DNA of 58,460 bases from a virus. Its lineage: Duplodnaviria; Caudoviricetes. Under the pieces are notes generated by a model, which was not told the origin of the DNA, ran no database searches, and saw nothing but the letters and a program-made list of their open reading frames with translations. The position numbers and the translations under genes were made by a program. The stretch lies in the IMG/VR virus record IMGVR_UViG_3300046722_000114, positions 1-58,460 of that record. One strand, given 5' to 3'. Shown here piece by piece: positions 38,531 through 49,874 of this stretch (the first letter of the stretch is position 1; every line of letters begins with the position of its first letter).

Positions 38531-41371
38531 TCACCCCGTCGCCCCTATCGGCCCGATGGCGTACCTGGGATCAACATTGAAGTCGAGCGGCGGCGTGTAA
38601 GCATATTCGATCGCTCGGATCGCGGCATAGATCGTCGCCGCGTGGCCCGTTGGATCAATAATCGTCGCCATCGCCAGCGCGCAGGTATTGATGTTCACAT
38701 AGGAGTTCGTTGCCGCCTGATTGCCAGCCGGGGCGCCCGTGACGTGCGCGAGGCCCGTGGGGCAGCCCGCATAGGGGTCCGGCATGTTGTCGAACTCGTG
38801 ATAGAAGAAGTTGCCGGAATCGTTGTAGCTGTTCCCGACATTGGTCCACGCGGCATTCCAATCCGCCGGCCACACCGAGTCGGTCGGGTAGTCCGACCAG
38901 ATCGCCAGATAGTCGGCTGGCAGCCAGTAAAGGCATCCCCCGATCGTCGTATCGTTCCGGTCAACCGAATTGTTCTTCCAGAAATTATTGCAGAAGCTGG
39001 CATACGCCGGCACTTCGTTTCGCCATCCCTCGATCGACAGGCCGATAAAGGCGATGTCCATCTGCCACCCGAGCATGAGGTTCGCTTGCGGCGGTGCGTA
39101 CATTCCAATAGGCACCGCCGCGGCGACGGGGCCGACAAGGATCGCCGGCACCCCACCGGGGTTCGATACCGAGTTCACATTCTGCCGCCACGCCTCAAAG
39201 TAGAGCGCCTGCTCGGCATGGACATCGCACCAGTATTGCAGAACCGGATCGGTCGCCGGCATCAGGTGGCGCGTGTTTCCCAACCATCGTATGCCCCAGC
39301 CGATTGCCCGCTCTTGCTCAAAAACCATGAGGCGCTGGTAGGTAATCGAGCCGATGGCAATCTGTTTCCAGAACGACTGGTCCCCCAGGCACATATTGCC
39401 GATGTGCAGCATATACTCGCGGTAGAGATCGTCGCCTGATTTCAGGTAAGTCAGGTATCCCGGCATCGGGCCGTGCGCCGAACTCATAAAGACGGTGTAG
39501 GCTTCGTATATGCCGTCTGCGCCCGGCGGCAGCCAGTTCGGGGTATTCAGCGCATAATACGGTCCCGAGCGCTCGGTCGGGCGGCACACACCGAGATTTG
39601 TATAGGTGGTCCCGTTCCGCAGGTGCCCGTCGTTCATGATCGGGATTTTCCCGACTGCCTCATCCTCAATGTAGATGTGCTGCTCGGCGAAGGTCAGGGC
39701 GATGACGCGGCAATTCTGGTTCTGCGTCACGTCGAAGGGAGTGTAGAGCAGCTTGACCTCATGGCTCATCATCCAGCCAATACGGTCGTCCCCGATATTG
39801 TCGCCGGCGGCGTTGAGGTTCCAGGTGAAATACATATTGCCCGGAGAGGCGGTCCACAGGCTCGTATCGGCGGTCGGCGAGAGCCCGGTGAGATACGGCG
39901 GGACCGCCTTTGATTTCGTCGTCAGGTAGACGAAATCGTGCGCCATCTCGTAGGCCGGGCGCGTTGCTCCAGACCACAGCCGATGCGCGTTCTCGTCAAG
40001 GTAGACCTGGCCGCAGAAGGCGAAGCACTGGCAATGCGGGGTGAAGGTGATTGTGCCACTGCCCTGCGTCGTGATGTCGGCGATCGCGCTCGTCCAGTGA
40101 ACGCTCCCATCGGTGATATCGGTGCCATTACCGGTCGGGCCGCCGCTGCCCGCGCTCGTCCCCGCCGTGATGCAGCGATACACCACATAATCACTGTTGA
40201 TGACGTAAGCACCAACCCCGTAATCGGTCAACGCGACCCACCCTATGCCTGCGGGTGGCGGCAGCAGGAGCGTGGGGGTTGGCGGCGCTGTGTTGCTGAT
40301 CGCCTCGGCATCGGACCGGGTTCTCGTGAGTGGCGTACCATTCGCCAGAGCGCCGGCATAGGGGCTGAGCCAGTAGACCTCCGAGGTATCGATCCCCGTG
40401 CCAACCGTGCCCGAGAGCGTGACCGGCACCCCGCCCGGTACATAGCCGAAGTTGGAGAACATGCCGGCAGACGATGCGATGGTGATCACCTTCGTCGTCG
40501 TGTTGAAGGCGGTCGAGGCGATCCCCGCTACCCGCGAGTCAGCCGAGCCGCCCCACGCTTGAAGCGTTGTCGCCCCGTCCAAGAGCGTCATGTCAAAGAT
40601 GATCGTGTCGTTGGAGGCGCCGCCGAGCGTCCCGCTGGTCGTGACGATATTCGACATCCGCACGCCGCAGCCGATCTCGAACGGCCCCGCGCTGCCCCAG
40701 GCCCGCACGTAGATCCAACCCTTCAGCCACTTGTGGAAAGCGTTGTCGCTCGTGCGCCGTAGGTAGGACCAGAAGCGCCACTCAACGCAGATCGGCCCGG
40801 CCCGCACAACCTCCCAGCCGCGCATCGGGTTGGCGCCCCATGGCCAATTCGTGCCGTTGGTGATGATGTCGTTGACGCCGACCTCGAAAACGTCGCTGCC
40901 GAGGGTCTGCCCGGTGAAGTGCGCCTTGATGTCCGAGTTGGCCGCCACGTTGGCGAGCGTCGCAACTGGCGTCCGCGTCGGCGCACCCGAGACGCTCCAC
41001 ACCTGATAGGTAATCACCTGATTGGTCGAGAAGGTGTCCGGCGAGACGAAGCTCAGGGCCGCGCCCTTCCAGCTCCCGTCCTGCAGCCACGTCGGCTCCT
41101 GATCCTGCTGGCTGGCAATGACCGTCGTGCCGTCGTTCGCGCGCAGTTCGATGTGTGACCCGCTTGGCACATCACCCGGCGCTAGCGGCTGGTAGATGCT
41201 AATCCTCGGGGTGGCGAGCGAACTGCCGCTGGTGTTCTTGACCTGGAAGGTCGTCACGGCGCCGGCTGGCGCGACCGGCGCAGCGACTCCGCCCATCCGG
41301 GCCCGCGCCGCCCGAGGCAGTATGAGCGCCGTTGCCACTGCGCCAATGAGATCGCGCCGCTTCAGTGCCAT
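38531..41371 (-). CDS. Large Tat-signal adhesin/carbohydrate-active-like protein
   Basis: MALKRRDLIGAVATALILPRAARA; PLAPGDVPSG..W.DGS.K.A beta-sandwich; CBM-like module. Confidence 0.7.
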   Translation of the reverse strand: MALKRRDLIGAVATALILPRAARARMGGVAAPVAPAGAVTTFQVKNTSGSSLATPRISIYQPLAPGDVPSGSHIELRANDGTTVIASQQDQEPTWLQDGSWKGAALSFVSPDTFSTNQVITYQVWSVSGAPTRTPVATLANVAANSDIKAHFTGQTLGSDVFEVGVNDIITNGTNWPWGANPMRGWEVVRAGPICVEWRFWSYLRRTSDNAFHKWLKGWIYVRAWGSAGPFEIGCGVRMSNIVTTSGTLGGASNDTIIFDMTLLDGATTLQAWGGSADSRVAGIASTAFNTTTKVITIASSAGMFSNFGYVPGGVPVTLSGTVGTGIDTSEVYWLSPYAGALANGTPLTRTRSDAEAISNTAPPTPTLLLPPPAGIGWVALTDYGVGAYVINSDYVVYRCITAGTSAGSGGPTGNGTDITDGSVHWTSAIADITTQGSGTITFTPHCQCFAFCGQVYLDENAHRLWSGATRPAYEMAHDFVYLTTKSKAVPPYLTGLSPTADTSLWTASPGNMYFTWNLNAAGDNIGDDRIGWMMSHEVKLLYTPFDVTQNQNCRVIALTFAEQHIYIEDEAVGKIPIMNDGHLRNGTTYTNLGVCRPTERSGPYYALNTPNWLPPGADGIYEAYTVFMSSAHGPMPGYLTYLKSGDDLYREYMLHIGNMCLGDQSFWKQIAIGSITYQRLMVFEQERAIGWGIRWLGNTRHLMPATDPVLQYWCDVHAEQALYFEAWRQNVNSVSNPGGVPAILVGPVAAAVPIGMYAPPQANLMLGWQMDIAFIGLSIEGWRNEVPAYASFCNNFWKNNSVDRNDTTIGGCLYWLPADYLAIWSDYPTDSVWPADWNAAWTNVGNSYNDSGNFFYHEFDNMPDPYAGCPTGLAHVTGAPAGNQAATNSYVNINTCALAMATIIDPTGHAATIYAAIRAIEYAYTPPLDFNVDPRYAIGPIGATG

Positions 41372-48311: not shown

Positions 48312-49874
48312 TCAGCAATGTGTAACAATCCCATTTACTGAGGCGAAGCTGCTCGTGGGCGAACCGCTGCATGTGACCCCGAGTGTCCCATCGGCGTAAT
48401 AGGCTCCCTTGACATTCAGCGTGTCTGCACCTTTGTCGCCGCCAGTAGGCGCACCGATCTGCACCCCACCGGCAGGCGTCATTGTGATCTGTGTCGTCGC
48501 ATTGGCACCGAGCACGAGCTGCCAAGCCCCAGCCGTCTGCAGGGAAGCGAAATTCTGCGCGTCGCTGATGAAGTAGGCCCCGAAGACGCTTCCTGACCAC
48601 AACTCAAGACCTGCCGGGGAAGCCCCCGCAGTCGGTGCGTGCGCAACAACTGCTCGCCCTCCCGCCGCGCTCGGGCCGATCTCGAAGCCCGCATTTATGT
48701 TAGCTCCTTGGGTCGTAAGAGCGCTGTCGGTCATCACCACGGCCTTGGCGCCGCCGGCCGAGTTGGTTGAATACATCCGCCAGCCATTCCCCGGCGACGC
48801 GCTGAACCAGTCAAGCGCATAGTCTTTCGGGAATTGAATAGCTGACGACACTCCGCTTATGTCTGCGGCTACCGACAGGCTATCGAAAACCATCCCAACG
48901 CCATATTTTGCGCCGTTGTTGATGACGTGAATGGCTGTCGAGCAATTATTGCCGCCGACGCCAAATCCAGACCCACAATCAAGACGCAGATTCTCAGTCA
49001 TCCCCGCGACATTCGTCGTGTAAGGATCAACTGCTGCATACGGATACGCTGTGCTGTTGACGTTCATCTCAGACTGGATGTGCGTGCTGCCAGGAGCATA
49101 GGCAACTAGATTGCTCTGCACATAATTAGCTTGGCTGAAGTGCTGTACCGAACCATCATCGTCAACCAGCAGCATCCCGTTATTGAGAACATAGCCGAAG
49201 GGTGCTCCAGCGGTGTGTGTCGCCTCTAACGCTGCCTGGATGCCTCCAGTCTCGGCCACGGCAAAAAGAGCGTGGTCTATTGGAAAATCGCCAGCCGACC
49301 AATACTTCGCAACCCATGTCGAGCGCCCTTGCGCCGCCGCCCCGAAGTAGCCGTTCCGGGACGCCAGGACATTGGTAAATACCGTATTTCCGGCATCAAA
49401 CCGATCGACGCCAAATGTCACCGAAGCACCCGTCAGGCTCGCTGTAGCGTTGTCTGAGAGAGTAACCGTTGTCCCTGAGATACCGATTACATATGTCAGG
49501 TTCCCGGGGGCAGGGACAAATCCCGGGCTCGTGCTCGATATCACGTTCCCAATAGAGATGTTGGCCACCGAGGCTACGGTAATATCTGGCGATCCCATAA
49601 CCGTATTTGCTGTAGTCGTCGTGGCCGTCTCGTATTGAGGATAGAGGCCGGAGCCAAATGGGAAATAATTGCTATTCTGAGAACTCGGCCCCAGCGTTCC
49701 TAAGATGGCATTCGCGGTTGCCTTCTTGGTTGCCCCGCCCTGAACAAGCGCCAGAAGCTCGCTACCGGACAATGGCAACGTGGCTTGGGGAAGGCTACTG
49801 ATTGTCTGCGCCTGCGCGGGAGCGGCCAGCAGCAGGAAGACGGCAGCCAGGATAACCGAGATGCGAGCCATCAT
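48312..49874 (-). CDS. Tail fibre with Sec signal and N-terminal ISxLP motif
   Basis: GAAGGA RBS; MMARISVILAAVFLLLAAPAQA|QTISSLPQA..LSGSE..VQGG.TKK; GAPTGGDKG.DTLN. Confidence 0.75.
   Translation of the reverse strand: MMARISVILAAVFLLLAAPAQAQTISSLPQATLPLSGSELLALVQGGATKKATANAILGTLGPSSQNSNYFPFGSGLYPQYETATTTTANTVMGSPDITVASVANISIGNVISSTSPGFVPAPGNLTYVIGISGTTVTLSDNATASLTGASVTFGVDRFDAGNTVFTNVLASRNGYFGAAAQGRSTWVAKYWSAGDFPIDHALFAVAETGGIQAALEATHTAGAPFGYVLNNGMLLVDDDGSVQHFSQANYVQSNLVAYAPGSTHIQSEMNVNSTAYPYAAVDPYTTNVAGMTENLRLDCGSGFGVGGNNCSTAIHVINNGAKYGVGMVFDSLSVAADISGVSSAIQFPKDYALDWFSASPGNGWRMYSTNSAGGAKAVVMTDSALTTQGANINAGFEIGPSAAGGRAVVAHAPTAGASPAGLELWSGSVFGAYFISDAQNFASLQTAGAWQLVLGANATTQITMTPAGGVQIGAPTGGDKGADTLNVKGAYYADGTLGVTCSGSPTSSFASVNGIVTHC

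Follow-up and report, generated by a model that had tools for sequence, protein, structure and literature searches.

In tailed phages, late proteins are to our knowledge normally cytoplasmic, and the exported ones that we know of are small lysis or exclusion factors. The phage depolymerases known to us, which act as tailspikes or as free enzymes at lysis, are likewise cytoplasmic and carry no export signals. Here, we describe a block of six adjacent genes, g1 to g6, in the IMG/VR virus record IMGVR_UViG_3300046722_000114 (Duplodnaviria; Caudoviricetes), a tailed-phage genome of 58,460 bases that was analyzed as a whole (the window). The block covers 11.3 kb of the minus strand (positions 49874 to 38531), about a fifth of the phage genome. 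It resembles phage depolymerases in its late gene position, in the β-helix of g4, and in its presumed host surface glycan substrate, but differs from them in that all six proteins carry leaders for the general secretory (Sec) or twin-arginine translocation (Tat) pathway and have no recognizable virion-attachment domain. In addition, tblastn searches of 50,697 phage records with g1, g4, and g6 were negative. The explanation that we favor, and consider to have somewhat better than even chances, is that the block is a mobile late cassette of envelope-exported proteins that bind or degrade glycans and that would be positioned in the envelope ahead of lysis to clear polysaccharide from the host surface.

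By fold and setting, our modeling points to VexL as the closest bacterial analogue, which is reported to be a capsule depolymerase that is encoded in Vi-antigen loci and acts in the periplasm (PDB 6fi2; PMC6003464). VexL is an exported β-helix enzyme of a bacterial capsule locus, to which the g4 model aligns, and g5-like genes are likewise found in polysaccharide loci. However, VexL serves its host in a capsule system of the ABC-transporter type, whereas the phage genes lie in the late region of a lytic phage, and the likeness of g4 to VexL is structural only. PcRGLX-like (exo-rhamnogalacturonan-lyase-like) proteins, represented by PF19501, PF21345, and PF21346, resemble g6 in that its family matches PF19501, its model superimposes on theirs, and one related structure cluster has a Tat label. 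In contrast, g6 itself falls below the Pfam threshold, contains an insert resembling carbohydrate-binding modules of families 5 and 12 (CBM5/12), and is phage encoded. Spanins and signal-anchor-release (SAR) endolysins are comparable as Sec-dependent late proteins that wait in the envelope for the holin, and the cassette abuts the lysis block. These lysis proteins are small and act on membrane or murein, whereas the cassette proteins are 295 to 946 residues long, of carbohydrate type, and include one predicted Tat substrate. Finally, Bdellovibrio fiber proteins are exported, phage-fiber-like adhesins that act outside the cytoplasm. They are encoded by chromosomal genes of a predator, whereas the cassette genes are carried by phages and prophages, and the likeness between the two is one of description only.

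A first-pass annotation, made from the letters of this DNA alone, had proposed that all six genes encode leaders once their starts are corrected. Our analysis bore this out, with N-termini as that annotation quoted them and with a ribosome-binding site or a stop-start overlap at each ATG. g1 (49874 to 48312; 520 residues) has AAGGA 5 nucleotides upstream of its start and encodes a Sec-type leader of 22 residues that ends in AQA before Q. g2 (48252 to 45775; 825 residues) begins at a run of four ATGs preceded by AGGA, and its leader is near-identical to that of g1. The ATGs of g3 (45775 to 44888; 295 residues), g4 (44888 to 43053; 611 residues), and g5 (43053 to 41362; 563 residues) each overlap the preceding stop codon by one base (TGATG). 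g4 and g5 have Sec leaders of 19 and 18 residues, respectively. The leader of g3 is hydrophobic and has the least clear cleavage site of the six, as had also been remarked in the first-pass annotation; a charged n-region and a hydrophobic core are present, and cleavage after xxA before Q is suggested by its relatives only. g6 (41371 to 38531; 946 residues) overlaps g5 by 10 nucleotides and has a twin-arginine leader, judged by eye as KRRDLIG followed by the mildly hydrophobic GAVATALILP and then RAARA as a basic c-region. The consensus of Tat signals is S/T-R-R-x-F-L-K.

We called Sec-type leaders with a home-made criterion that asks for a positive n-region, a hydrophobic core (about 8 to 15 residues), and, no more than about 30 residues from the start, small amino acids at −3 and −1. 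When applied to 853 candidate starts in open reading frames (ORFs) of at least 100 residues on both strands, this heuristic passed 26 starts, 14 of which were rows for g1 to g5, with three for a lipobox protein starting at 36194, two for a holin-like gene, and seven scattered. The pattern was clear for g1, g2, g4, and g5, and g6 failed this Sec-type test. A hydrophobicity test (best 10-residue Kyte-Doolittle mean of at least 2.0 in the first 40 residues) was passed by all six cassette proteins versus 6 of the 35 other window proteins, and four of these latter six are membrane or envelope proteins of the lysis block. Given the results of both tests, six adjacent leader-bearing genes are far beyond what chance would produce.

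The first-pass annotation had also suggested asking whether homologs keep the leaders, and we found them kept in diverged relatives of g1, g3, and g4/g5 and in part of the g6 family. Six of seven retrieved relatives of g1 have a leader-like N-terminus, and for the seventh, P0028, the match is confined to the C-terminal 13%. Hydrophobic leaders are likewise present in six of seven retrieved g3 relatives, with the seventh being a fragment on a 1113-base contig. An exhaustive search with g4 yielded 138 representative relatives, of which 94 start with M and pass the leader test. When only g4 relatives of at least 500 residues were considered, 82 of 93 had a leader-like N-terminus compared to 6 of the 35 other window proteins. 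The leaders of relatives have diverged in sequence, yet their charge, hydrophobic core, and small-residue pattern are kept. By eye, twin-arginine motifs recur in g6 relatives as TRRQVLL (L007), RRVFL (P0004), RRSVL (L019), and TRRRLM (L010). Cysteines number 4, 10, 6, 16, 10, and 14 in g1 to g6, an even count in all six, and their density is 1.65% in the cassette versus 0.86% in 22 other phage proteins. Cysteines this even and dense fit with folding in an oxidizing compartment. Leader conservation, the recurring twin-arginine motif, and the even cysteine counts support the proposal of the first-pass annotation that these proteins are exported via Sec and Tat, and on these sequence features we consider export to be very likely.

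To describe the mature proteins, we begin with g4. An AlphaFold2 (AF2) model of g4 formed a right-handed parallel β-helix with a predicted local distance difference test score (pLDDT) of 79.6 and a predicted template-modeling score (pTM) of 0.85, and the protein carries a CBM5/12-like insert. VIA-align placed the model nearest to 9cdv (rhombotarget A; Z of 17.7) and the pectate lyase 1ru4 (Pel9A; Z of 17.3). Pectin methylesterases, PL6 alginate lyases, and RbmB were also among its fold neighbors, for an overall Z range of 14 to 17.7. The alignment with VexL had a Z of 15.0 and a root-mean-square deviation of 3.6 over 229 residues, and the tailspikes of Sf6, CBA120, and Det7 reached Z values of 14.6 to 15.1. 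The top fold matches of the g4 model are secreted or periplasmic carbohydrate enzymes. Because g5 is a paralog of the modeled g4 (31 to 37% identity), it is expected to share the β-helix fold. Against NF041518 (choice-of-anchor Q), g5 scored 12.5 bits and the relatives in L007 and L010 scored 15.7 and 15.0 bits, all below the cutoff of 25 bits, and g4 gave no match; the likeness of these proteins to that family is a resemblance only. We also observed a short C-terminal tag in g4 and g5 (43053 to 43090 and 41362 to 41400, respectively) that is Gly-rich and basic and ends in an aromatic residue and then His. This tag is kept with variants in several relatives and could be a sorting or docking signal, and it matched none of the known C-terminal sorting families.

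By profile comparisons and modeling, g6 is a PcRGLX-like protein. PF19501 was found in 6 of 11 aligned members of its family (best E value of 1.6e-8) and CBM_5_12 in 4 of 11, with neither found in g6 itself, which matched no Pfam family at E values up to 1. Superposition of the g6 Atlas model with PcRGLX clusters gave template-modeling (TM) scores of 0.62/0.84 and 0.51/0.52, with TM by query of 0.50 to 0.62, and one neighboring Atlas cluster is named “Tat pathway signal sequence domain protein.” A search of PDB sequences with the g6 family profile returned only the CBM-like stretch of chitinase A1, at an E value of 0.49. Family membership was assigned by hhalign or hmmsearch to proteins of L003, L007, L010, L018, L019, L020, and L021. 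Twin-arginine leaders are present in P0004, L007, L010, and L019, and Sec-type leaders are present in P0014 (the same protein as in L021) and L003. P0006, P0007, P0008 (the same protein as in L018), P0010, and L020 are leaderless and have cadherin-, FN3-, or Ig-like N-termini. The neighbor of a g5-like gene in L009 was not detected as a g6 relative by hmmsearch and is not counted in the family. Proteins of about 1,210 residues with twin-arginine motifs in L030 (8171 to 11815) and L032 (8190 to 11825) were considered as g6 relatives and rejected, with the L030 protein having an hhalign probability of 0.2% and no hmmsearch match and the L032 protein being set aside by its likeness to it. Both are encoded after g5-like genes and have an SRR(A/Q)FLAGAG motif 35 to 45 residues after the first possible start; they are a second family in the same slot as g6.

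The remaining three proteins are less well placed, and none of g1 to g6 had a match in Pfam or PHROGs or an above-threshold match in NCBIfam. The mature part of g1 is β-rich and fiber-like. An Atlas structure search with g1 produced leads below 0.9 only. The mature N-terminus of g1 was rejected as a known fiber-docking motif, with a 58-residue query giving E values of at least 0.07 against the phage records; its best match was about 105 residues inside a minor tail protein of a Flavobacterium phage, away from the N-terminus. DUF2793, a motif treated in a paper on RcGTA (PMC5026251), presumably differs in its consensus from the N-terminal motif of g1. g2 is Gly/Thr/Ser-rich and fiber-like, with its cysteines in five closely spaced pairs. 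The C-terminal 170 or so residues of g2 match leader-bearing prophage proteins of 360 residues in two alphaproteobacterial genomes (E value of 1e-18; 44 to 47% identity), and a tblastn search of the phage records with g2 gave matches in 3 records that cover only 7% of the protein. g3, a small protein rich in Cys, is possibly lectin-like; leader proteins that resemble it by eye, unaligned, are encoded in L024 and L033.

Relatives of the cassette proteins in bacterial chromosomes further inform the origin of the leaders. Scanning a single genome for each prokaryotic species, we detected 11 loci, all in alphaproteobacterial assemblies (Stellaceae, Acetobacteraceae, and other Alphaproteobacteria), and no other protein of this phage was found in these loci within the DNA fetched. 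The closest bacterial relatives of g5 (40 to 49% identity), from Acetobacteraceae and other alphaproteobacterial assemblies, are encoded beside glycosyltransferase, epimerase, and Wzb-like genes. In L012, for instance, the neighbors of the g5-like gene are two GT4 glycosyltransferases, a Wzb-like phosphatase, an NAD epimerase, and a GT8 gene. The copies in L008 and L011 have lipobox-type leaders and lie beside an epimerase-like gene. In both L007 and L010, a g4-like gene adjoins a large relative of g6 with a Tat-type leader. Kinship of these proteins to g6 was given by hhalign as 99.0% for L007 and as 97.2% over 342 C-terminal columns for L010, in which the neighboring genes (a histidine kinase, a methyltransferase, and an E1 dehydrogenase) are ordinary chromosomal genes. 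On the basis of these loci and their neighbors, the g4/g5 and g6 families are exported bacterial protein families, and the leader is their ancestral state and no phage invention.

The phage has a tailspike of its own, apart from the cassette. A leaderless β-helix protein is encoded on the minus strand at 1 to 1367 (its N-terminal 455 residues) and continues across the record junction at 58328 to 58049, with the peptide reading identically at both record ends. This protein matched PF12708 (Pect-lyase_RHGA_epim; 45.4 bits) and PF13229 (Beta_helix; 38.0 bits), both above cutoff. Its gene lies directly after that of an SU10-type adaptor (2186 to 3271; PF24175), and since a leaderless β-helix gene adjoins this adaptor, the particle bears a conventional cytoplasmic tailspike. 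An all-against-all BLASTP comparison of the six cassette proteins with the tailspike, the adaptor, the nozzle-like protein, and the ejection proteins detected no attachment module common to the cassette proteins, tailspike, adaptor, or nozzle-like protein, although a novel kind of adaptor could escape such a comparison. The matches that it did detect were the g4-g5 paralogy, a common CBM5/12-like motif in g5 and g6, and two weak ones, g1 with g2 (22% identity; E value of 2e-7) and g1 with p54898 (E value of 7e-4). Directly downstream of g6 on the minus strand is the lysis block (35880 to 38524), composed of membrane proteins, the holin-like gene (37213 to 37626; Phage_holin_10 at 22.8 bits, below the 27-bit cutoff), and the lipobox protein that passed our Sec-type test. 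We recognized no endolysin in this block.

Runs of leader-bearing genes were also observed in one prophage and at least seven further viral contigs with differing tail types, often beside lysis genes. In G001 (L003 and L017), which encodes an NlpC/P60 protein and a lambda-J-like tail tip, the cluster follows endolysin and lipobox genes. Other clusters were observed in L019, L021, L027, L030, L031, L032, and L033, the last being a 58.8-kb contig in which a run of six leader genes stops immediately ahead of lysis-like genes. The cluster abuts lysis genes in the window, G001, L030, L031, and L033. L027, a low-GC IMG/VR contig, has two adjacent leader genes (4325 to 7878), one with the g1-type N-terminal motif and one that is SPRY-like and g4-like. 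Their G+C contents at third codon positions (GC3) are 0.51 and 0.61, compared to 0.12 to 0.32 in neighboring genes. Because GC3 departs from that of the neighbors, the pair appears to be a transferred unit, and L027 looks like a recent transfer of an exported pair into an unrelated low-GC phage. A prophage of G004 (L025 19527 to L026 4327; G004:C1 at approximately 1.517 to 1.522 Mb) contains six consecutive leader-bearing genes, including a homolog of the C-terminal domain of g2.

We propose a model in which g1 to g5 would cross the inner membrane of the infected cell by means of cleavable Sec leaders and g6 by means of its Tat leader. The cassette proteins would then fold in the oxidizing envelope, where they are probably disulfide bonded, and would accumulate before the holin fires, as spanins do. 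At least g4, g5, and g6, each with a CBM5/12-like insert, belong to families that soil alphaproteobacterial hosts appear to use as exported proteins, some from polysaccharide-synthesis loci, and these three would most likely bind and cut host capsule, exopolysaccharide, or another surface glycan, with g1 to g3 as putative fiber-like or lectin-like binding members of the same exported set. As a possible benefit, matrix or receptor glycan would be stripped from the infected cell and from its debris, and lysis would set free stable enzymes, allowing progeny to escape and reach new cells. The particle itself would adsorb by the conventional cytoplasmic tailspike, and in this model, which is the most economical reading, the cassette is a self-contained late accessory unit apart from the adsorption apparatus of the particle. 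Searches for tyrosine and serine recombinases, integrases, and resolvases, whose controls gave their expected signal, detected none in this record, which is rated 97% complete. With no integrase or resolvase in the record, the phage looks virulent, and the cassette proteins must therefore serve the lytic cycle.

In this phage, a fifth of a lytic genome codes for large, putatively exported proteins of carbohydrate type that have relatives among the exported proteins encoded in host polysaccharide loci. If our model is correct, exit from matrix-embedded soil bacteria would gain a step beyond holin, endolysin, and spanin in the form of prepositioned glycan-clearing enzymes, and phages would have repeatedly borrowed periplasmic polysaccharide-processing enzymes from their hosts, signal peptide included. 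The search for depolymerases in metagenomes would be affected, as a leader-bearing “tail fiber” gene may not be a determinant of host range. Such cassettes are also a potential source of glycanases predicted to be disulfide bonded and stable outside the cell.

The same evidence for export and carbohydrate folds could be read as receptor destruction or masking, in which the exported proteins would remove or cover a glycan receptor from within, so that superinfection is blocked and progeny are kept off debris. T5 Llp and Cor lipoproteins resemble such a system in function, but this one would be aimed at glycan receptors. The virion tailspike is also a pectate-lyase-like β-helix, so the particle and the exported proteins may act on a common polymer; the lack of an integrase suits this reading as well. 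However, six large proteins far exceed known exclusion systems, the exported β-helices have no sequence similarity to the tailspike by BLASTP (best E value of 0.46), and several clusters adjoin lysis genes, which points to exit rather than exclusion. We consider receptor destruction unlikely.

A different role was the central claim of the first-pass annotation, which viewed the six proteins as a receptor-binding apparatus that matures in the periplasm and joins virions. As exported virion appendages, the folded proteins would dock on the tail or head when holin, endolysin, and spanin merge the compartments, adding disulfide-stabilized fibers and depolymerases to the particle. Several observations lean in this direction and weigh against our model of glycan clearance. 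The block lies at the classic podophage tailspike position, between the ejection and lysis genes, and its genes show the translational coupling of structural genes. g1 and g2 are fiber-like in composition, and the C-terminal motif of g1 is shared with P0028, a leaderless fiber-like protein. An AF2 model of g1 from a seven-row alignment was unusable (pLDDT of 32.5), and neither g1 nor g2 has a fold assignment. In the G004 prophage, the cluster is part of the structural region, with the portal on one side and genes for the capsid protease and major capsid protein on the other, and it encodes a leader protein that matches tail-fiber PHROGs (phrog_863; 3e-11). The g6 relatives with cadherin or FN3 N-termini and no leader in phage contigs L018 and L020 suggest that the same enzyme body is probably virion borne at times. 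β-Helix folds match tailspikes too, with Sf6 at a Z of 15.1, and tailspikes can join finished particles in vitro. Furthermore, contact of the cassette proteins with surface glycan before lysis is an assumption of our model, because Sec and Tat take proteins no farther than the periplasm and we identified no route across the outer membrane.

Nevertheless, we found nothing in support of virion docking by the six proteins themselves. The phage has a conventional leaderless tailspike beside its adaptor, and the six proteins have no recognizable N- or C-terminal module common to each other or to the tailspike. The same families are exported from nonphage chromosomal loci, and comparable clusters accompany tails as unrelated as those with a podovirus-type adaptor and those with a lambda-J-type tail tip. 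With g1, g4, and g6 lacking a homolog in the phage records, this role draws no support from virion proteomes, and in the literature that we searched, no tailed phage is reported to assemble exported proteins and no Sec- or Tat-exported tail fibers or depolymerase clusters are reported in tailed phages. We therefore regard virion attachment as distinctly unlikely. The alternative that the first-pass annotation had offered, in which the infected cell carries the proteins on its surface or sets them free, is a better fit. If virion attachment were nonetheless true, it would mean a second, envelope-side stage of virion assembly that crosses lineages of soil phages, a stage not known for Caudoviricetes that would change the textbook picture of virion assembly.

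The cassette could also be cargo (a moron) that mainly serves a lysogen or carrier cell by providing surface adhesins or polysaccharide-remodeling enzymes. Homologous clusters in an integrated prophage and the origin of the families in bacterial polysaccharide loci are compatible with this role, and a break of about 470 nucleotides before g1, with a divergent plus-strand ORF for a membrane protein, would allow separate transcription. However, the record is without integrase or resolvase, no repressor was recognized among the phage proteins scanned, the genes are coupled in line with the late genes, and a scan of 37500 to 51000 for promoters and terminators stayed at background level (3 promoter-like sites versus 3.7 expected), making host-benefit cargo highly unlikely. 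Least credible is that the proteins are not exported at all, with their hydrophobic N-termini serving as docking helices or as membrane anchors on the cytoplasmic side, or with translation truly starting farther downstream: residue 26 of g6 is an internal Met that corresponds to the annotated start of its close relative P0002, g3 is without a clean cleavage site, and our leader calls come from a home-made heuristic, but ribosome-binding sites or stop-start overlaps mark the upstream ATGs, n-region charge, core, and small −3/−1 residues recur in relatives with unrelated leader sequences, Sec- and Tat-type leaders alternate within one family, and cysteine counts are even.

The clearance model is set in a genome whose remaining features are those of a tailed phage. 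Positions 1 to 132 of the window are a copy of 58329 to 58460 with 1 mismatch, and because the ends repeat each other, the genome is circularly closed or terminally redundant. The minus strand carries nearly all long genes, among which we recognized a large terminase, portal, major capsid protein, SU10-type adaptor, primase, methyltransferases, and other virion proteins. The major capsid protein is 56.6% identical to its counterpart in Bradyrhizobium phage ppBjS10J-1 and is related to that of Mx8. An internal virion protein (52406 to 54235) has a transglycosylase at its N-terminus, the sole muralytic domain found. A megablast search with the whole six-gene block gave no match. The DNA runs that contain this stretch are labeled as soil or rhizosphere metagenomes, and no RNA datasets containing it are listed. 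The break directly before g1 is the only one in the minus-strand late gene run and is occupied by the plus-strand ORF (49973 to 50383), which is divergent to g1, has several hydrophobic stretches, and matched no Pfam or PHROG family. This ORF may mark the boundary of the cassette or an independent promoter region.

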